DNA from: Escherichia coli
Lineage (GTDB): Bacteria > Pseudomonadota > Gammaproteobacteria > Enterobacterales > Enterobacteriaceae
Strand: one strand, 5' to 3'
Assembly: GCF_003334385.1 (NCBI RefSeq)
Contig: NZ_QOWN01000070.1
Length of the DNA stretch: 9,240 bases
Below are positions 745 to 9,240 of this stretch, one piece after another; positions within the stretch are counted from its first letter, which is position 1; each line of letters opens with the position of its first letter. A program made the position numbers and the translations under genes. Under the pieces are notes generated by a model, which saw nothing but the letters and a program-made list of their open reading frames with translations, was not told the DNA's origin and did no database searches.

Positions 745-821
745 TGGCGCGTTCTACTGTATTCGAACCAGTGACCGATTGCTTAGAAGGCAATTGCTCT
801 GTCCGGCTGAGCTAACAACGC
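745..821 (-). tRNA. tRNA-Arg (anticodon UCU), phage-type (argO-like position)
   Basis: Minus-strand read: GCGTTGT-TA-GCTC-AGCCGGACA-GAGC-A-ATTGC-CTTCTAA-GCAAT-CGGTC-ACTGG-TTCGAAT-ACAGT-AGAACGC-G-CCA. D and anticodon stems are perfect, the T-loop is TTCGAAT, and the 3' CCA is encoded. One mismatch each in the acceptor stem and T-stem. Confidence 0.7.
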
Positions 822-834
822 AGGATACAGATAA

Positions 835-911
835 TGAACCGCCTTCGGGGACCCGAACTCCGCGCAACCAGCTTCGAAGGCTGGCGCTCTTTCCTGATGA
901 GCTAATGGCGG
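835..911 (-). tRNA. tRNA-like gene, possibly tRNA-Arg (anticodon UCG) or a degenerate tRNA pseudogene (argN-like position)
   Basis: Minus-strand read: CCGCCAT-TA-GCTC-ATCAGGAAA-GAGC-G-CCAGC-CTTCGAA-GCTGG-TTGCG-CGGAG-TTCGGGT-CCCCG-AAGGCGG-T-TCA. D and anticodon arms are perfect, but the T-loop is non-canonical (TTCGGGT), acceptor and T stems each carry one mismatch, and the 3' end reads TCA rather than CCA. Confidence 0.4.
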
Positions 912-918
912 TATGTGA

Positions 919-994
919 TGGTGGCCCTTGCTGGATTTGAACCAGCGACCTGGCGATTATGAGTCGCTCACTCTCACCACTGAGCTAAAGGGCC
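919..994 (-). tRNA. tRNA with anticodon CAU (tRNA-Ile2 or tRNA-Met type; ileZ-like position)
   Basis: Minus-strand read: GGCCCTT-TA-GCTC-AGTGGTGA-GAGT-G-AGCGA-CTCATAA-TCGCC-AGGTC-GCTGG-TTCAAAT-CCAGC-AAGGGCC-A-CCA. Acceptor and T stems are perfect, the T-loop is canonical, CCA is encoded; 76 nt. Confidence 0.75.
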
Positions 995-1004
995 GAGCCA
1001 AAAA

Positions 1005-1033
1005 ATAATAATCAGATGAAAATCAATAATCAA
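1005..1033 (-). promoter_or_regulatory. Sigma70-like promoter for the tRNA cluster
   Basis: On the minus strand, TTGATT (plus 1028-1033), a 17-nt spacer, then TATTAT (plus 1005-1010), ending about 10 nt upstream of the tRNA 5' end at 994. Overlaps the 3' end of the AraC-like ORF. Confidence 0.35.
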
Positions 1034-1736
1034 GCCCTTGCCTGGATACATATCTGTCTGGCGGGAAGCCATAATAGCGGTGAAATACAGAAATAAAGTA
1101 GGACCTGCTTGAATAACCGCATTTTTCTGCTATAGCCTGTCCATATCCATGCCGGGAACATAACATATTTACAGCAACACGCATCCGCTCTTCCAGCAAC
1201 AAGCGACTGAACATGCCCCCTTCATTTTTCAGTTTTGTCTTTAACAAACTCTCACTCATATGCAACTGTAGAGCAATCGCACCAAGCGTCCAGCTTGCTG
1301 ATATATCTGTCTGAATTATCGCCCTGACTTTGGCACTTATGCTGGATAAACATCCACTTAAAAACAATGACATCCGTTCATCTGTTTCAAACAGAGACAG
1401 GCAGGCCATCATAAGAAACATATCCGTGGCCTCTCCGGAAAATCCCTGGCTGGTAATTAAAGCCGCAGCCAACGCAGGATTGTTGGGTTCCAGCAACAGG
1501 TAAAGCGGAATGTCAGTCAGACGAGTCCTCGTCAGCTTATGCTGACTTTCCAGATATTGACTTACGACGGATTCGCTTATATCGACAATTTTAACTTTGC
1601 CATAATGCATAAGGAAAAGCTCCCTGATGCATTTGGTGGCCAGAACAACTGAGCCTGGCTTAAGTGACAACGTATCCTTTTCAAGAAAAATATTAATTGG
1701 GGAGCAAACCATGATAACTGAACAGACAACAGCCAT
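1023..1736 (-). CDS. AraC/XylS-family transcriptional regulator, YdeO/AppY/GadX-like
   Basis: ORF track, 237 aa, ATG start. The N-terminus MAVVCSVIMVC resembles the M-x-x-VCSV start I recall for YdeO/AppY. The C-terminal region (SESLLKTKLKNEGGMFSRLLLEERMRVA ... IAEKCGYSSRSYFISVFHRYYGFPP) has the pattern of the AraC-family HTH. From memory, not searched. Confidence 0.8.
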   Translation of the reverse strand: MAVVCSVIMVCSPINIFLEKDTLSLKPGSVVLATKCIRELFLMHYGKVKIVDISESVVSQYLESQHKLTRTRLTDIPLYLLLEPNNPALAAALITSQGFSGEATDMFLMMACLSLFETDERMSLFLSGCLSSISAKVRAIIQTDISASWTLGAIALQLHMSESLLKTKLKNEGGMFSRLLLEERMRVAVNMLCSRHGYGQAIAEKCGYSSRSYFISVFHRYYGFPPDRYVSRQGLDY

Positions 1737-2334: not shown

Positions 2335-3510
2335 ATGGATATAACTTGTTTAGAATGTGGCAATGTTCTTGACGACCCAACTGTAGCTTGCGATAAATGC
2401 GGTGCCACGCCTCATGTTGTAGTGCTGGGCAAACAATCGTACTTTCCTATTGGTGCTGTAACAGCAAATCTTGAAAAAAATGATTCAAGAGCATTTGATT
2501 ATCGATTAGGTGAAGTTTGGGATCTAAAAAATGAAGTCACATCTGAATTCATAACCAGAATTGAGAAAAAATTTAGCCGAAAAAACAAATTTCATAACTT
2601 CCTAGACTCAGATCACAACCCTTCATCCATTCCTACGATCCTAAAAAAATACATTAATAAAAATAATGAATTCATTGATTTATCTAGAGCTATAATAGAG
2701 AAGCTTAAACATAATGCTAATAACGAATCGAGAGTTGCCCAACTTCAGGGGGGGAGCGTTGTTTTCATCCACTATAAGTCTACCGAACCAGAGGATTTGG
2801 GGAAACTTCTAATCGTAATGGTTGATAAACAAAGCGCCTATGACTTTGATTCGGATAAGTTGACCCCAACAAGATTAAATCCAATTAATACCGATGCCTT
2901 ACGGCAGGCTGCGATGTTCGATTTAACTTTATTCGAAGCCAGTTATCCAGAAAACAAGGGTGACTCATATGTACATTTCTTGCAAGGTAAATCTAAAAGC
3001 GATTTTTTCAAAGACTCATTAGGTTGCCGACATGATTCGGACAATAAAAGAAGCATTCAGCAATTATTCAGTGCTATAGATATTTTTGCTAGTAAAAACT
3101 CACTCGGTCGTGTACTGCGTGATACTATTGACAATGAAGTTAAATCCTTACTGGAAAAAAAATCAAAAGATAAACACGGAAATAAGTCCGTTAAGATAGA
3201 GGATATTTCAAAAATAATTGACTCATGCCTGACTGATTCACACAAATGTAAGGGAACGTTTGTCGATTTTGTTAATCTTAATGGTTTCCAGATTGACCCT
3301 CAATTTGAACCAACTCCTAAAGCAGCTGAAAGCGCGCTTACAATTGAAGTGGCAGATAACGACAATAATTTTAAGTTGAAAATAATGCGTGGAGCTATTG
3401 GAGACGAAAAGTCAAATAAGCCTGTAATTCTCACTGACAACAAATGCGAAATTGTGATAAAATTGAGTCAGGCAAATTATGATGAACTCAAAAGATATAG
3501 AGACAGCTAA
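2335..3510 (+). CDS. Cassette gene 1: N-terminal zinc-ribbon fused to an NdpA/YejK-like (NA37 family) nucleoid-associated-protein-like domain
   Basis: ORF track, 391 aa. The DNA is AT-rich (about 30% GC on a sampled 60-nt line, versus about 58% on a sampled line in the helicase gene). CxxC-x10-CxxC at C5, C8, C19, C22. The motifs GGSVVFIHY ... LLIVMVD ... AAMFDLTLF ... YVHFLQGKSKSDFFKDSLG match the order and spacing I recall for E. coli YejK (GG-V-LF-HY ... LLVAVL ... ARIDLTEW ... [22 protein letters not shown]). From memory, not verified. Confidence 0.8.
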   Translation: MDITCLECGNVLDDPTVACDKCGATPHVVVLGKQSYFPIGAVTANLEKNDSRAFDYRLGEVWDLKNEVTSEFITRIEKKFSRKNKFHNFLDSDHNPSSIPTILKKYINKNNEFIDLSRAIIEKLKHNANNESRVAQLQGGSVVFIHYKSTEPEDLGKLLIVMVDKQSAYDFDSDKLTPTRLNPINTDALRQAAMFDLTLFEASYPENKGDSYVHFLQGKSKSDFFKDSLGCRHDSDNKRSIQQLFSAIDIFASKNSLGRVLRDTIDNEVKSLLEKKSKDKHGNKSVKIEDISKIIDSCLTDSHKCKGTFVDFVNLNGFQIDPQFEPTPKAAESALTIEVADNDNNFKLKIMRGAIGDEKSNKPVILTDNKCEIVIKLSQANYDELKRYRDS

Positions 3511-3512
3511 TA

Positions 3513-4727
3513 ATGACAATTGCTGATGACTTATCAAGATTAGCGCAGATTATTAACGGAGCCTCAAGCAGAGTTGAGGGCTACTACACTGTCATAAGTC
3601 TTGAAGAAAGCATTGTTATTGTAAATAGTTCTGAAATAATTAGACTGTTACAATCTATAGGTTATAAAAAGGCAACAACCTGCATCGAAAATAATGAAAT
3701 TTGGCTAGATCGCCAAGCTTCATCTTGGGATGACGCTATAATTTATGAGAATGTTGAGTCTTTTTGGTCTAGAGTAAACACCCAAAACGCTCTTCCGAAA
3801 AATTATATCATCGGAACGCCGTTAATACTCCCTACTTCTAAGAATGAAAGCATCGAAAAAATCCATATTTTCTTTATGTGGAAAGATATCCTTTCATTAA
3901 TTGCTGATCATCATAACAGTGACTGCTCTGTCTTATTTTTCACCAATGAAGACAAAAGTTATACAGTCGAACTCACGCATTTTTTACAATATAGCGAGAT
4001 TAATCGCTTATCGAACTCGTCTCTTAAATATGAAATTATAAAGGAGCTTCTCGACACAATAAAAATCAATGATTTACACAAAAGCGAGCGCAAGCTCGTT
4101 ATACGCTCAGCCATAAACGAAGTATTTAAAGCAAATGGTACGTTCAATTTCTTTGACTTGCTTAACTCTACTGAACTCGTCAGGAAAAAATATGATGAAC
4201 TATATGAGATTTACACAAAGAGGTTTTCTGTAAATAAAATTCTTAACGAACTCGATGAGAAAAATCTTGAGTTCACGAGTAAAATTAACGAATTCATATC
4301 ATCTAATCAGACAAAAGCATTGACTATTCCCGGTGCATTAATAGCTGCTGGTGGCTTAGTGAAGGCTAATGAAACAACCGAAGCAATATTGATTATCGCA
4401 GGACTTTGGATGATAAAAAAAGTCAATTACATTTCTATTGAGATATTCAATGAAACATTCGACAACTTACGTTCTCGAGTGGAGTCCGCTTTCGATAAGT
4501 ATTTAAAGTTTGAAGAAAATAAAGAAATCAAAGATAATGCAGATAGTATTAAGAGTAGCATTACAGGTTTGATTGATAAAGCTAAAAAAAGGATGAGAAC
4601 TGTTAAATATCTCGCATCAGCCATGTTTTATGGAGGCCTTATTTACGTTGGATATAAACAGTTCCCAGTCTTTTTTGAAAAATCGGCAGTAAATCTATTT
4701 TATTTTTTATGCCATACTATAAGCTAA
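3513..4727 (+). CDS. Cassette gene 2: predicted membrane-associated protein of unknown function (candidate effector)
   Basis: ORF track, 404 aa. The ATG lies 2 nt after the gene 1 stop, indicating an operon. AT-rich. Hydrophobic segments ALTIPGALIAAGGLV and AILIIAGLWMI (about nt 4318-4420) and the C-terminal YLASAMFYGGLIYVGY (about nt 4608-4680). No catalytic motif recognised. Confidence 0.8.
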   Translation: MTIADDLSRLAQIINGASSRVEGYYTVISLEESIVIVNSSEIIRLLQSIGYKKATTCIENNEIWLDRQASSWDDAIIYENVESFWSRVNTQNALPKNYIIGTPLILPTSKNESIEKIHIFFMWKDILSLIADHHNSDCSVLFFTNEDKSYTVELTHFLQYSEINRLSNSSLKYEIIKELLDTIKINDLHKSERKLVIRSAINEVFKANGTFNFFDLLNSTELVRKKYDELYEIYTKRFSVNKILNELDEKNLEFTSKINEFISSNQTKALTIPGALIAAGGLVKANETTEAILIIAGLWMIKKVNYISIEIFNETFDNLRSRVESAFDKYLKFEENKEIKDNADSIKSSITGLIDKAKKRMRTVKYLASAMFYGGLIYVGYKQFPVFFEKSAVNLFYFLCHTIS

Positions 4728-5063
4728 CATTGCTAAACAGCCGTCAACAAACCCCATTGCAGTTTGCAGTTCCTTCCTAATTGTGCCATCAGAGCATTTT
4801 CTCTTCTTCGCAATAGTACGTAATGAGATACCGATAACAAAGTGGGCGATGATGAGCTCATATTCCTCTGGTTTATACCTTCTCAACCGAGCCACACAAC
4901 TGTCTATCATGATGCCTTCGTCATCATCACACTGAATCCGTGACTTTTTGCCATGAGGTAAAAGTCCCTTGAAACCAGCCGCTATCGGCTGCCAGTCCAC
5001 TCCGCTATTGTCTGAAGCAGCCCAAGCTCCCCAACGATCCATTACTTCATACATATCACGCAT
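4707..5063 (-). CDS. Phage antitermination protein Q (QuuD-like small Q family)
   Basis: The ORF track calls 4707..5078 from a TTG. I prefer the in-frame ATG at 5061-5063, which has GGAGA 6 nt upstream and gives MRDMYEVMDRWGAWAA..., matching the M-R-D...ERWGAWAA start I recall for DLP12 QuuD-type Q proteins. The 3' end overlaps cassette gene 2 convergently by 21 bp. Confidence 0.75.
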   Translation of the reverse strand: MRDMYEVMDRWGAWAASDNSGVDWQPIAAGFKGLLPHGKKSRIQCDDDEGIMIDSCVARLRRYKPEEYELIIAHFVIGISLRTIAKKRKCSDGTIRKELQTAMGFVDGCLAMLAYSMA

Positions 5064-5080
5064 CAACTTTCTCCACAAAA

Positions 5081-6100
5081 TCAGGCCAGCACACCAATTG
5101 CCAGCGCACGATCGATAAAACGAAATATCAACTCCAGCTGGGAGCCATACTTCTCTTCAAATGCCACGGTATCCGCATGCAGCTCGTCGTGATGCTTTCT
5201 GCACAAAGGCAACACAAAGAGATCATGCGCTTTTGTACCCATTCCCCCCTGACCGTGGCCTATCAGATGGTGGGGATCATCAGCAGGCTTTCCACAACAT
5301 GCACACGGCTGCGTCTTAACCCAGCGCGTGTACTTTTCATTAACCCAGCGGCGACGTTTGGGGCGTAACATAAAAGACTCCGGCGACTCCGGATCCACTT
5401 TCAGCGCCAGCACCTTTTTCGCTTTATCCTGGATGATGCTGGTGGCAGGAACCGAAGGCACAAGGTCACTTTCCCGGGTGACAGACGGCACAACAGGCTT
5501 CGGTAATCTCAGTGCCTTACGGGCTGCACTTTCCGGTAAGGCATCCGCCAGGTCATTACGAATCAGCCACCAGCACAGTTCCGGCATTGTCACAACGTGA
5601 CTGTCATCAAAACCAAGATCACGGCGCACAACAGATAACACCCAGCGGGCACAGTTATCCGTTGCCATTGCTTCCAGCCGTTCCGTGAACTGGTCACGGA
5701 GAAGATTGTCACAGTGCCAGCACAGACGGATTGCACCCGGCGCGTGTCGCATTGTGGTCATGTTCTCGCTGTGCCATCCGGAATGAGGCCACTGACAGCC
5801 CTTTTCACGAAGTAACCAGCTTTCAAGACATTCCACCCCACCAGTACAACGAATAACTGCCTCATTGCGGAACACGGCCCGAACGGCAGGATCATCCGCC
5901 AGCGGTTGTGATGCTGCCGGAACGGCACCGCTGGCGAAAGATGAATAACGTTCCGGCTCAGGCTCCAGCAGGACACGCCCCTGCATAAACAGGGGCATCA
6001 GCTCTGAACCGGGCCTGAACAATACAATCCCCATACGCGGGGCAATTTCAGGGGTCAGCAGTGCTCTCACGGTCACCTCAGCAAACGATATTGAATGCAT
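5081..6100 (-). CDS. DUF968-like phage protein with a C-terminal Cys/His (HNH-like) motif
   Basis: ORF track, 339 aa, ATG start. The C-terminal motif CACCGKPADDPHHLIGHGQGG...LPLCRKHHDELH resembles the YdfU/DUF968 family found just upstream of Q in E. coli prophages. From memory. Confidence 0.7.
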   Translation of the reverse strand: MHSISFAEVTVRALLTPEIAPRMGIVLFRPGSELMPLFMQGRVLLEPEPERYSSFASGAVPAASQPLADDPAVRAVFRNEAVIRCTGGVECLESWLLREKGCQWPHSGWHSENMTTMRHAPGAIRLCWHCDNLLRDQFTERLEAMATDNCARWVLSVVRRDLGFDDSHVVTMPELCWWLIRNDLADALPESAARKALRLPKPVVPSVTRESDLVPSVPATSIIQDKAKKVLALKVDPESPESFMLRPKRRRWVNEKYTRWVKTQPCACCGKPADDPHHLIGHGQGGMGTKAHDLFVLPLCRKHHDELHADTVAFEEKYGSQLELIFRFIDRALAIGVLA

Positions 6101-6121
6101 ACAGAGAAAAAAACTCAGTCA

Positions 6122-6379
6122 TCACGCAGTAAACTCCTTCACCAGTATTTCAAACTGGCTTACCTGTCCTTCCAGTTCCGCCACGCAATCCACCAGCTCA
6201 TCCACCGCCTTTTGTGTGCGGTGTTTTGCCTGCAGCAGATCACGAAGCGCCGGAGTAAGCTGCTTGCGGAGCGTATCTTTTTTCACGCTCGTTTTTTCCA
6301 TCTGTTCAGCACAACGAAGCATCTCCTGCGCCTGCCGACGAAGTTGTTCCGGTGAAACAGTGATTGTTCTGTTGTTCAA
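6122..6379 (-). CDS. Hypothetical small phage protein (85 aa, predicted helical)
   Basis: ORF track; TTG start overlapping the helicase stop (TTGA), with GGAG about 8 nt upstream; no in-frame ATG until residue 20. Charged, helix-like composition. No family recognised. Confidence 0.45.
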   Translation of the reverse strand: MNNRTITVSPEQLRRQAQEMLRCAEQMEKTSVKKDTLRKQLTPALRDLLQAKHRTQKAVDELVDCVAELEGQVSQFEILVKEFTA

Positions 6380-7776
6380 AATAAACGCTCCGTTTTACTG
6401 CCCGACATGCGGTTATTGCTGTATCTGCGCGGATTGCCCGGCGTCATGGGTGTGGAAAGAACCCGGGCACTCTCCTGGTCCACAGGCAGAAAATGTCCGT
6501 TATGAAAACGCCGGTAAATGGTCCCGAGCGTGCCATTACGCTGTTTCGTGATGTTGATTTCTGCTATGCCTCTGGCCTGAGTTTCCGGGTTGTATACCTC
6601 ATCCCTGTAAAGCATCAGAATGATGTCGGCATCCGCCTCGATTTCCCCGGAGTTTTTCAGGTCCGAGTTCATTGGGCGTTTATTGGGTCTGGATTCCACG
6701 CCGCGGGAGAGCTGGCTCAGAGCAATCAGCGGAAAACCGCCGGATTTTGCCAGGCTTTTAAGTCCCTTTGAGATTTCCCCCACCGCAAGGTCGTGACGCC
6801 CCGTGCTGCGGGTTTTAATCAGGCCGAGGTAATCGACCACCACCAGCGCCGTTTCCGGGTGTTTCATCCGGTGGTGCTTCGTGGTTGCACATATCTCATC
6901 AATGGTCAGGTTTGCCTGGTCCACCATCCAGATATTACGCCCCGTCATTCGTCCCACGCCCTGCGAGAAACGCGCCCAGTCTTCATCTTCAAAACGGGCA
7001 ACAGACTTAAGACGGGATACCGGCATTCCACCGGCAGCAGACACCATACGTTCACCAATCTGGATGTTCGCCATCTCCATGGTGAACAGAAGCACGCCAT
7101 GCCCCTGCTCAGTCACCTTGTCGATGATGTCCAGCGCAAGTTCGGTTTTCCCCATCGAAGGACGGGCGGCAATGAATACCAGGTCTCCGGGCTCCATACC
7201 GCCCGTTTTTGCGTCCAGTTCATCAATACCGGTCATCAGCGCCCTGGATTTCTCCAGTCCCTGATTGCGGCATTCAACACGGTCGACCACTTCCGGAAGG
7301 ACATCATCAATGTGAACCGGCTGAATGACGCCCTTTCCGGTCGACAGTGAGGCCATCATGTTCTGCACATCCTTCAGGGCATCCTCGGCTGCTTCACAGG
7401 TATACGCATCACGTAAATTCTGTAATGCTTCAGTCAGTGTTTTTTCTGCATCGCGCAGTGCGGCATTGCGCCGCAACGCTGCGACATAGTGCTCCAGTGA
7501 AGACTTCACCCAGGTTTTGCGTCCGGTGTCGGTAATCACCGGGGCAAGTTCCGGCATCTCATTGCACAGCAGTACGGGGTCAATGACGCCGGATATGCGA
7601 GCCTGTCTGCAAATCCCCGCGTAAATATCCCGGTACTGACGCACAAAAAATACATCCGCCGGAAGTGTGGCCAGAATATCCATCACTTCCGGATCGGCCC
7701 CACGCAGAAAAAACGCACCGATGACAGCGCCTTCCAGGTCATCGTTACGCCATGCCGGGGTGTTCTGGCTGGTCAT
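6376..7776 (-). CDS. DnaB-family replicative DNA helicase (phage-encoded)
   Basis: ORF track, 466 aa, ATG start with GGAGGTG 7 nt upstream. Walker A ARPSMGKT, and the block ALSQLSRGVESRPNKRPMNSDLKNSGEIEADADIILMLYRDEVY closely parallels E. coli DnaB ([44 protein letters not shown]). Confidence 0.9.
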   Translation of the reverse strand: MTSQNTPAWRNDDLEGAVIGAFFLRGADPEVMDILATLPADVFFVRQYRDIYAGICRQARISGVIDPVLLCNEMPELAPVITDTGRKTWVKSSLEHYVAALRRNAALRDAEKTLTEALQNLRDAYTCEAAEDALKDVQNMMASLSTGKGVIQPVHIDDVLPEVVDRVECRNQGLEKSRALMTGIDELDAKTGGMEPGDLVFIAARPSMGKTELALDIIDKVTEQGHGVLLFTMEMANIQIGERMVSAAGGMPVSRLKSVARFEDEDWARFSQGVGRMTGRNIWMVDQANLTIDEICATTKHHRMKHPETALVVVDYLGLIKTRSTGRHDLAVGEISKGLKSLAKSGGFPLIALSQLSRGVESRPNKRPMNSDLKNSGEIEADADIILMLYRDEVYNPETQARGIAEINITKQRNGTLGTIYRRFHNGHFLPVDQESARVLSTPMTPGNPRRYSNNRMSGSKTERLF

Positions 7777-8672
7777 GCGGCAACACCTCCGATACGAGAA
7801 CGGTAGCTGGGCCAGTTAAACGACAACCAGTTGCGCCCGTCATCGGTGATCCTGTCGGCAATCCGGGGACTGATGAACGCCCACAATTCTTCCGGTGAAA
7901 GATTGCTGATCAAGATAGTTGGCAAAATACCCTCATACCGGGCATTGATAATTTCCTGCAAAATGGCCATTTCAGCCGCACTGCCAAACTGAACGCCGAC
8001 TTCGTCGACAATCAGCAAATCCAGTGACGCATAATGCTCAATGACGTCATCCGCTGTTTTTTCACTGTCATTCCGCCAGCAGTTTTTCACAGCCCGGGTA
8101 AGGCGCATCACGTCGGTGATCTCCACACTGGCCAGATAGTTACGGATGATGTGTTTTGCCATTGATACCGCCAGATGATTTTTCCCGGTACCGCAACTGC
8201 CGGTCATAACAAGACTGGTACCGTTCTCCAGCATATCTGGCCAGTTCTCCGCATAGCGGCGACAGGCCGCAAGATTTCTGGCTGCGTCAGGATTAACCTC
8301 CAGATAATTATCAAACTCGCAGTCCCGAAAACGCAGAGCAATTCCGGCGTTATCAGTCAGTTCTTCCGCCTTGAGGGACGACAGTTCCATGGTCAAATCA
8401 CTGGCCTCAGCGATCAAGCAGTCAGGGCAGCATGAAATTTTTTCTCTGTCCTCGCCATTACGATCGATCCACACCAGTATATGCGTACGATATTTACCGT
8501 GTTTTTCGCAATATCCGCGACCTTCACGCATCAGGCAGGAACGATAAGGCCATGGCTTTTCGCCCTTCTGAGCAAATGCAATCTCTGCCCGTAACTCATC
8601 CATTTCTGCCCGTAAATCATCCATTCGCGCCTGTAGTCTTGTTTGTTTCTCACGTTGGTCAATCGTCATCAT
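7773..8672 (-). CDS. DnaC-like helicase loader (AAA+ ATPase)
   Basis: The ORF track calls 7773..8681 from a GTG. I prefer the ATG at 8670-8672, with GAGGTGA about 5 nt upstream. Walker A GSCGTGKNHLA, Walker B LLIVDEVG, and C-terminal FNWPSYRSR (E. coli DnaC has FNWDSYRSR). The stop overlaps the helicase start (ATGA). Confidence 0.85.
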   Translation of the reverse strand: MMTIDQREKQTRLQARMDDLRAEMDELRAEIAFAQKGEKPWPYRSCLMREGRGYCEKHGKYRTHILVWIDRNGEDREKISCCPDCLIAEASDLTMELSSLKAEELTDNAGIALRFRDCEFDNYLEVNPDAARNLAACRRYAENWPDMLENGTSLVMTGSCGTGKNHLAVSMAKHIIRNYLASVEITDVMRLTRAVKNCWRNDSEKTADDVIEHYASLDLLIVDEVGVQFGSAAEMAILQEIINARYEGILPTILISNLSPEELWAFISPRIADRITDDGRNWLSFNWPSYRSRIGGVAA

Positions 8673-8682
8673 CGCTGTCACC

Positions 8683-9240
8683 TCAGAATGTCAATTTGTT
8701 ACTGGATTTACCAAATTTGTCAGACATGGCTCCCAGGCCAGCCAGGACATCGACCTGTCGCTGTCGCCCACCTCCGTGAGCGGCTGGCTGTTGCCAGTAA
8801 TCTTCGAAGTGACGATCGGGTCCAAAGAACGTCGCAGCCTGCTTCACGAACTGTGTGCCGGTATTTCCTGTAGCACGTACCCAGGCGGCATACCGCTTCA
8901 CGCCATCAAGCATGGTCTCCGGTTTTATTCCCTCCCTGATACGGGCTTTCCAGGCTTTGAAGGCTGCTGACTTGGAATTGCCACCAGCACGTTTGGGATA
9001 TTCCTGCCAGGCCTGTTCAAATTCCGGTGAATATTCCTGTCTGGCAGAACGCGCTGGTGCAGACGCGTCAGCGGATGCGCCAATAGTGTTTTTAGTCTCC
9101 GTTGTAATCTCTGTAGTAATCTCTGTATTTGTATCAACATTCGGCGTATCCCCTGTTCCGTTACGACGTCGGGGGGTGTTCCGTTTTAACGTAATAGCTG
9201 TATCGCTGATTGCATTATTGCTGTTACTTTCTGGCGAAAC
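8683..9240 (-). CDS. Phage replication initiator (O-like replisome organiser), C-terminal part; 5' end lies beyond the window
   Basis: I translated the minus strand by hand from 9240 down to the stop at 8683-8685 and found no in-frame stop. The track's 76-aa ORF (8683..8913) is the tail of this frame. The C-terminal sequence EFEQAWQEYPKRAGGNSKSAAFKAWKARIREGIKPETMLDGVKRYAAWVRATG...FFGPDRHFEDYWQQP resembles the conserved C-terminal domain of lambdoid replication proteins. It sits immediately upstream of the DnaC-like gene. Confidence 0.7.
   Translation of the reverse strand, partial: VSPESNSNNAISDTAITLKRNTPRRRNGTGDTPNVDTNTEITTEITTETKNTIGASADASAPARSARQEYSPEFEQAWQEYPKRAGGNSKSAAFKAWKARIREGIKPETMLDGVKRYAAWVRATGNTGTQFVKQAATFFGPDRHFEDYWQQPAAHGGGRQRQVDVLAGLGAMSDKFGKSSNKLTF
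9104..9127. repeat. Perfect tandem 12-mer (GTAATCTCTGTA x2) inside the O-like gene; candidate iterons
   Basis: 9104-9115 is identical to 9116-9127, with partial copies on both flanks. A 9-mer TGTTCCGTT also recurs at 9155-9163 and 9177-9185. The tandem encodes the TEITTEITTE linker on the minus strand. Confidence 0.55.

Follow-up and report, generated by a model that had tools for sequence, protein, structure and literature searches.

The 9,240-nucleotide stretch of Escherichia coli DNA analyzed here (contig NZ_QOWN01000070.1 of assembly GCF_003334385.1), called the window below, carries on its minus strand, at 5081..6070, an intact allele of the YdfU/DUF968 gene family. The gene is the last one of the delayed-early ("nin") operon of a lambdoid prophage and lies between the replication genes and the antiterminator gene Q. 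Its product is predicted to combine a C-terminal HNH core of the His-Me finger type with a family-specific N-terminal domain that has a Cys/His cluster of its own. On balance, it probably acts as a metal-dependent DNA nickase or endonuclease, early, on replication or recombination intermediates, and maybe in a manner linked to RecA. The parts of this proposal differ in strength. The conserved residues make it likely that the protein is catalytically competent, and a RecA link, which is drawn by analogy, is a tentative suggestion. The closest characterized relatives of the protein are P1 Ref and PhiNM1 Gp16.

The identity and family of the gene can be read directly. The window's listing of open reading frames (ORFs) has one minus-strand ORF here, 5081-6100, which encodes 339 residues if translation begins at ATG 6100. 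The ORF matches Pfam DUF968 (PF06147) over nearly the entire model (E 7.6e-81, residues 170-336, model positions 2-171 of 171) and PHROG 96, labeled "HNH endonuclease," from residue 11 to the end in the 339-residue numbering (E 3.4e-174). A partial match to HNHc_6 (PF16784; E 7.5e-6, model positions 123-184 of 204) places the HNH core in the HNHc_6 subtype. RefSeq labels close homologues, with 97% identical DNA, "DUF968 domain-containing protein." The assignment of the product of 5081-6070 to this fold and family can be taken as practically certain. No NCBIfam model matches the protein, PADLOC 2.0 gave no defence-model hit for it at E <= 0.01, and sequence searches of the PDB with the protein alone, with a full-length profile and with a profile of the N-terminal domain found nothing meaningful.

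The original prediction, made from the sequence alone, had taken this product for a DUF968-like protein, encoded upstream of Q, whose C terminus has the look of a zinc-binding nuclease. The Pfam match bears out the family membership, and every motif quoted for the C terminus is contained in the ORF, which reads ...KTQPCACCGKPADDPHHLIGHGQGGMGTKAHDLFVLPLCRKHHDELHADTVAFEEKYGSQLELIFRFIDRALAIGVLA and ...QPCACCGKPADDPHHLIGHGQGGMGTKAHDLFVLPLCRKHHDELH... there. The profile and structure search that was proposed at the time returned, in addition to the DUF968, HNHc_6 and PHROG 96 matches, homology to YbcO and Gp16. The C terminus does resemble HNH and His-Me finger proteins, a resemblance on which the prediction had staked itself. 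The position was also right. Directly downstream lies a Q-like antiterminator (4707..5063, minus strand; probable start ATG 5063) that matches PHROG 79, "anti-termination protein Q-like," with an E of 3.3e-50, and the homologous RefSeq locus agrees.

The true start of the gene is probably GTG 6070, which gives a protein of 329 residues with its stop codon at 5081-5083, rather than ATG 6100. This start is favored because the lengths and starts of the homologues, the start Met of YdfU and a ribosome-binding sequence agree. RefSeq homologues are 329 residues long, the database homologues and PHROG 96 all start at residue 11 of the 339-residue ORF, and the start Met of K-12 YdfU falls at the equivalent of the GTG 6070 position. 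A Shine-Dalgarno-like GAGGTG (6074..6079, minus strand), read from the sequence, is found three bases (ACC) 5' of the GTG, and inspection of the sequence 5' of ATG 6100 revealed no comparable site. Starting at ATG 6100 would add 10 residues that are present in no homologue. From here on, residues are numbered in the 329-residue form.

The HNH or His-Me finger core, residues 251-300 (5171..5320, minus strand), holds the motif on which the original prediction was based. Its predicted zinc ligands are C256, C259, C290 and H293, so a CxxC...Cxx[CH] zinc site is present at the level of the ligand residues. The predicted catalytic or metal-site residues are H268, at the end of the strand beta-1, D283, H294 and H298. 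In the AlphaFold model of the full-length protein (mean pLDDT, the predicted local distance difference test, 89; predicted template-modeling score, pTM, 0.58), residues 265-299 fold into two strands plus a helix, which is the beta-hairpin/alpha-helix arrangement of a His-Me finger. The input to this model was an alignment of 39 diverse full-length homologues. H268 is found in 36/39 of the aligned proteins, H294 and H298 each in 35/39, and D283, K238 and P288 are invariant. This means that the catalytic His and the helix metal ligand expected of a His-Me finger are both present and conserved. From these residues we infer that the core would bind metal.

How the sites behave across the family is informative as well. 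The counts were taken over 188 fetched family proteins that cover the sites. The full CC-H-D-C[CH]-H-H set, comprising the four zinc ligands and the three His, occurs in 164 of the 188, the window protein among them. Sixteen proteins are without two or more of the zinc ligands and keep all three His. Conversely, the Cys set is kept and all three His are lost in three PdcB-like proteins and in one further protein with three ligands. Because of these patterns of ligand and His loss, the family apparently includes zinc-independent catalytic variants and probably one non-catalytic branch.

The N-terminal domain, residues 1-190 (5501..6070, minus strand), is specific to the family, lies outside the Pfam DUF968 model and is without a solved structural counterpart. 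Modeled alone, it reaches a pLDDT of 93.5 and a pTM of 0.79. It contains a second Cys/His cluster (5711..5797, minus strand), unmentioned in the original prediction, that is made up of C92, H100, C117, (H119) and C120 in "CQ...H...RLCWHCDN" and lies in the family motif "LCWH[HC]DN." In the alignment of 39 homologues, C92 and H/C100 are each present in 38/39 and C117 and C/H120 in all 39. The cluster is thereby better conserved than the zinc site of the C-terminal HNH core, and it is kept even in the branches without HNH zinc ligands or catalytic His. In the model, C117 is at the end of a beta-hairpin (104-117) and C120 is in the first turn of a helix (118-124). The cluster is probably a structural zinc site of the treble-clef or beta-beta-alpha type, as far as the residue pattern tells. 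When the zinc region of this domain was compared with the C-terminal HNH by hhalign, the two were collinear and C117/C120 paired with C290/H293; the match is weak (P 0.009, probability ~4%). We read the N-terminal region as a structural zinc module, possibly one that arose as a degenerate duplicate of the HNH. A second active nuclease site in this domain was considered and rejected because residue 109, the equivalent of the catalytic His, is not conserved there.

Between the two domains, residues 191-250 (5321..5500, minus strand) form a linker that is modeled with lower confidence (pLDDT 71-85) and falls within the Pfam DUF968 model. It has the conserved sequence "VDPE(P/S)P..FM.RPK..RW," and the basic patch RPKRRRW immediately ahead of the HNH core. 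In addition to the invariant K238, D226 and P237 are nearly invariant in the linker in the same alignment. Following the core is a C-terminal helical tail, residues 301-329 (5084..5170, minus strand), with the motifs "WE..(Y/H)GSQ..." and "ALxxGV" and modeled helices at 301-308 and 311-324. The tail is conserved in the family and in YbcO, and the hhalign match to YbcO reaches the C terminus.

The most telling comparison is with Gp16 of the Staphylococcus phage PhiNM1, an HNHc_6 (PF16784) protein. The HNH cores are 41% identical over 59 residues (hhalign probability 95.2%) and the CxxC, His, CxxH, H and H residues are identically spaced: C256/C259 correspond to C145/C148 of Gp16, H268 to H157, C290/H293 to C181/H184, H294 to H185 and H298 to H189. 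The two families cross-hit, in that Gp16 itself matches Pfam DUF968 and the window protein matches HNHc_6, and each protein comes from an early phage gene in the neighborhood of replication genes. Gp16, an early protein, introduces nicks into plasmid DNA and binds RecA, which stimulates it. It also causes the nucleoid to condense, inhibits replication of the host and raises phage yield, and mutation of its zinc ligands abolishes its activity (NAR 2026, PMC12817073). Its N terminus is a NinB-like domain, and the window protein has no such NinB/Orf-like N-terminal part. P1 Ref (PDB 3plw; RecA_dep_nuc, PF16786) is a RecA-dependent HNH nuclease (PMC4330346, PMC4713147). It has a disordered basic N-terminal tail of 76 residues and no folded N-terminal domain, unlike the window protein.

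Other relatives show which parts of the protein vary. YbcO of the DLP12 prophage (DUF1364; PDB 3g27) is recognized by profile homology (probability 82.6%, E 9.6e-6), and its His align with the catalytic His set of the window protein. However, YbcO is a single domain of 96 residues without the N-terminal domain or the linker, and its equivalent of H298 is an Asp. A match to 3g27 obtained from an alignment that contained YbcO was not counted, being circular. K-12 YdfU, in the Qin prophage, is 56% identical by BLASTP over 329/349 residues (E 5e-145), collinear over the full length, of the same two-domain architecture and likewise encoded directly upstream of a Q homologue, ydfT. Its N-terminal half is a different allele, and its linker is lengthened by an insertion of 20 residues. 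Because YdfU is itself uncharacterized, the comparison says nothing further about function. P1 PdcB, homologous over its full length (26% identity, E 1e-39), has the two domains and the two Cys clusters. In PdcB (4001-5044 of our locus L008; also entries P0188, P0195 and P0257), H268, H294 and H298 are replaced, and because of this loss PdcB is probably a non-catalytic derivative and not a nuclease. P1 pdcB is nonessential and its function is unknown (PMC10695390).

The genomic position of the gene is conserved as well. A close homologous E. coli locus, the one with 97% identical DNA, has the same gene order, with Q annotated as "antiterminator Q family protein" and with the same spacing of 18 nucleotides that separates the DUF968 stop from the Q start at ATG 5063 in the window; the ORF listing extends Q to TTG 5078 (4707-5078). 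Neighbors were also counted in 79 IMG/VR loci whose alleles are >= 97% identical, a set that is informative for mosaic flanks and not for diversity. A Q-like antiterminator is the next gene in 78 of these 79 loci, and it belongs to PHROG 79 in 43 loci, to PHROG 127 in 31 and to PHROG 753 in four. The upstream neighbor is a KilA-N regulator in 67 loci and DnaB in 12. In distant homologues, too, the gene comes behind replication genes and ahead of RusA and/or Q. A Vibrio homologue is in an early region after an HTH_36 gene, with no Q called downstream, and P1 pdcB is directly 5' of the late-promoter activator gene lpa, an order that mirrors the DUF968-Q arrangement.

In the window, the delayed-early operon comprises, all on the minus strand, the C-terminal part of a replication initiator (8683-8913), a DnaC-like loader (7773-8681), a DnaB-like helicase (6376-7776) and an ORF of 85 residues (6122-6379) that overlaps the DnaB stop by 4 nucleotides and is followed by the DUF968 gene. 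The 85-residue ORF matches the C-terminal part of PHROG 2565, whose function is unknown, and gives a marginal PADLOC hit to PDC-M40C (E 9e-4); at this position in a related RefSeq prophage there is a hypothetical gene of equal size. Profile annotation of the window found no Rap, RusA or NinB between DnaB and Q. A promoter and terminator scan found no promoter-like site from 4600 to 6500, and the hairpins there are weak and terminator-like. One of these, at 5085-5105 on the minus strand, has 7 pairs followed by CTGATTTTGT and falls at the 3' terminus of the DUF968 gene, right before Q. This hairpin is no more than a match to the consensus, in a region with 5 such sites versus 1.7 expected from shuffles. 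Four database entries of 584-587 residues (P0006, P0008, P0014 and P0020), each a singleton cluster, join DUF968 to Pfam Antiterm (Q). Read-through or a frameshift in gene calling over the short junction probably accounts for these entries, rather than real fusions.

Taken with the conserved core, this context leads to the following proposal for the window protein. C256, C259, C290 and H293 would hold the structural zinc of the HNH core, H268 at the end of beta-1 would serve as the general base, and H294 and H298, with D283, would hold a catalytic divalent metal. The N-terminal zinc domain and the partly flexible basic linker (RPKRRRW) may target the protein to DNA structures or to partner proteins. 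The protein would be made early in lytic growth and would nick or cut replication and recombination intermediates of the phage or the host. Coupling to RecA is conceivable, by analogy with P1 Ref and PhiNM1 Gp16. The role would be accessory rather than essential, as suggested by P1 PdcB being nonessential.

Several points weigh against this proposal. The arrangement of the domains is uncertain, and the structure is a prediction without metal sites. The match of the window protein to the Ref family in Pfam is not significant (E 0.45), and because the N-terminal parts differ, the RecA link of Ref and Gp16 is not transferable. The catalytic-site His mutants of Gp16 relieve toxicity only in part (PMC12817073), so binding of DNA or protein may matter as much as cleavage. 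The PdcB branch keeps the architecture and the four Cys without the His and must therefore work without HNH catalysis. Finally, the original prediction called the family poorly characterized, and rightly so: literature searches on DUF968, YdfU and PdcB found no experimental study or assay.

In an alternative that we consider unlikely, the protein would chiefly bind DNA or other proteins without catalysis, for instance as a regulator or a modulator of the replisome or RecA at the early-to-late transition, with both zinc modules acting as binding fingers and the HNH vestigial or secondary. In addition to the His-less PdcB-like branch, which retains both domains and all Cys, this is favored by the better conservation of the N-terminal Cys/His cluster relative to the HNH zinc site, by the "transcriptional regulator" labels on some neighbors or homologues, and by the observation that the toxicity of Gp16 rests more on zinc-finger residues than on the catalytic His (PMC12817073). 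The gene also directly precedes a late-gene activator, be it one of three Q families or Lpa in P1; however, adjacency to Q would also be expected of a gene that closes an operon module in mosaic phages. A vestigial HNH is hard to reconcile with the presence of all three catalytic His in 164/188 proteins and with D283, which is unchanged in every pattern listed. The 16 proteins without zinc ligands that keep all three His argue for selection on catalysis.

If the protein does cut DNA, it may do so in the manner of lambda Rap (NinG, PF05766), as a branch-specific endonuclease that needs no contact with RecA and trims or resolves intermediates so that concatemers can be packaged. This alternative overlaps with the proposal above and is a possibility we rate well short of even. 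Rap, which stimulates recombination, is a His-Me finger protein from the same nin slot between the replication genes and Q (PMC5714182, group 24; PMC4118853), and the window has neither Rap nor RusA nor NinB to fill that slot between DnaB and Q. HNH modules of the DUF968 type have also been found fused to Erf, Rad52 and RusA (PMC4118853, PMC5714182). On the other hand, the domain organization of Rap differs from that of the window protein, and the Pfam scan of the DUF968 protein gave no NinG (PF05766) match. In addition, DUF968 or YbcO is often found beside RusA, which speaks against a simple substitute for a resolvase. The remaining roles that phage HNH domains are known to fill, as a packaging protein of the HK97 gp74 type, a mobile homing endonuclease or a defence or exclusion nuclease, are all very improbable here, even with a defence island located ~350 bp downstream of Q in the window. 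The gene is in an early operon far from the terminase, rather than adjacent to it, and in one homologous locus a separate HNH, of PF01844, is encoded beside the terminase. The conserved position and two-domain architecture, kept from Enterobacterales to Vibrio and P1, are unlike those of a free-standing homing endonuclease, and the DUF968 protein has no PADLOC or NCBIfam hit.

A bolder version of the nuclease proposal, which we think improbable, takes the N-terminal domain to be a degenerate second HNH or treble-clef module, derived by internal duplication, that serves as a targeting device and docks the protein to nick DNA before the late genes are expressed. Through the invariant C-x7-[HC]-x16-C-x2-[CH] cluster on its beta-hairpin and helix, the protein may dock on a specific DNA structure or on a factor of the host, such as RecA, SSB or the replisome. 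Nicking just before Q turns on the late genes may bring about a switch to recombination-dependent or rolling-circle replication and the shutdown of the host chromosome. The His-less PdcB branch may then have kept the docking function only.

The gene is also remarkably common, in keeping with the original prediction that the family is widespread in prophages. Similar DNA is found in 3722/5426 complete E. coli genomes, a single one of which may have as many as six copies, and the protein has matches in 187 phage records, which include mEp460, SfIV, ST64B, many Stx2 phages, Klebsiella and Vibrio phages and, with PdcB, P1. Alleles are mosaic. The last ~110 codons of the window gene (5084-5410, minus strand) are nearly identical to those of K-12 ydfU (locus L006), as are the residues they encode, in proteins that are 56% identical overall, and an ST131-type allele (P0046) changes from YdfU-like to window-like near the "LCWHCDN" motif. 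Because DUF968 alleles are mosaic and three Q families are found downstream of them, the conserved 3' end of the gene suggests a recombination joint at which Q and the late modules are swapped.

Beyond Q, the window holds several other elements. A two-gene anti-phage system, at 2335-3510 and 3513-4727 on the plus strand, is convergent with Q in an island of low GC content (35-38%). The first protein matches the NCBIfam model DS1_1_antiphage (451 bits vs a cutoff of 330) and is nucleoid-associated YejK-like, with an N-terminal CxxC...CxxC ribbon; the second matches DS1_2_antiphage (375 bits vs a cutoff of 315). Neither DS1 protein was recognized by PADLOC 2.0 (2023). In a related prophage, a DNA methyltransferase occupies the same slot between Q and the tRNAs, and because the slot holds the DS1 pair here and the methyltransferase there, it looks like a variable cargo site. 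The same low-GC island has a 237-residue AraC-family regulator (1023-1736, minus strand), nearest to YdeO/GadX and far below their cutoffs. There is also a 65-residue ORF at 1871-2068 on the minus strand. The prophage tRNA cluster (745-994, minus strand) consists of tRNA-Arg(tct), tRNA-Arg(tcg) and a CAT-anticodon tRNA, which is called Met by ARAGORN and whose equivalent in a related RefSeq prophage is annotated as tRNA-Ile. We take the cluster to be of the usual ileZ-argN-argO type, which in Stx-like phages lies downstream of Q. The Rfam small RNA STnc100 (RF02076) is present twice, at 1-186 and 464-669 on the minus strand (134 and 141 bits vs a gathering score of 47), with the first copy cut by the end of the window.

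Much of the ground had been prepared by earlier work. In proteins of the DUF968 type, Curtis et al. (2014) noted an HNH zinc-finger motif, along with fusions to Orf, Erf, Rad52 and RusA (PMC4118853), and YbcO/DUF1364 was predicted to be a nuclease by Kaur and Subramanian (2016; PMC4999995). In the classification of Jablonska et al. (2017), DUF968 and DUF1364/YbcO share group 7 of the His-Me finger superfamily, with YdfU named; these authors proposed a role in recombination and noted RusA and Q as neighbors of DUF968 (PMC5714182). The fold classification and the idea of a nuclease have thus been known since 2017, and the gene is already annotated. The present analysis adds a corrected start, the second and better-conserved Cys/His cluster in the family-specific N-terminal domain, and the residue-level link to Gp16. 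Further additions are the three states of site conservation in the family and the near-invariant adjacency to Q across Q families.

As an already annotated and fold-classified family member, the window gene raises no question beyond that of an uncharacterized DUF. The family, of course, matters more widely. The DUF968 gene is among the commonest E. coli prophage genes, with similar DNA in about two thirds of complete genomes, and the family is carried by Stx2-converting phages, Shigella SfIV and Salmonella ST64B. The relatives that share its core, P1 Ref and PhiNM1 Gp16, are linked to RecA, damage host DNA and affect phage yield, and Ref enhances killing by antibiotics. If YdfU-type proteins behave like Ref and Gp16, they could influence prophage induction, the replication of Stx phages and recombination-driven mosaicism. 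If the N-terminal domain is a duplicated module that serves for docking, one of the commonest uncharacterized E. coli prophage genes would represent a new class of host-coupled nuclease.

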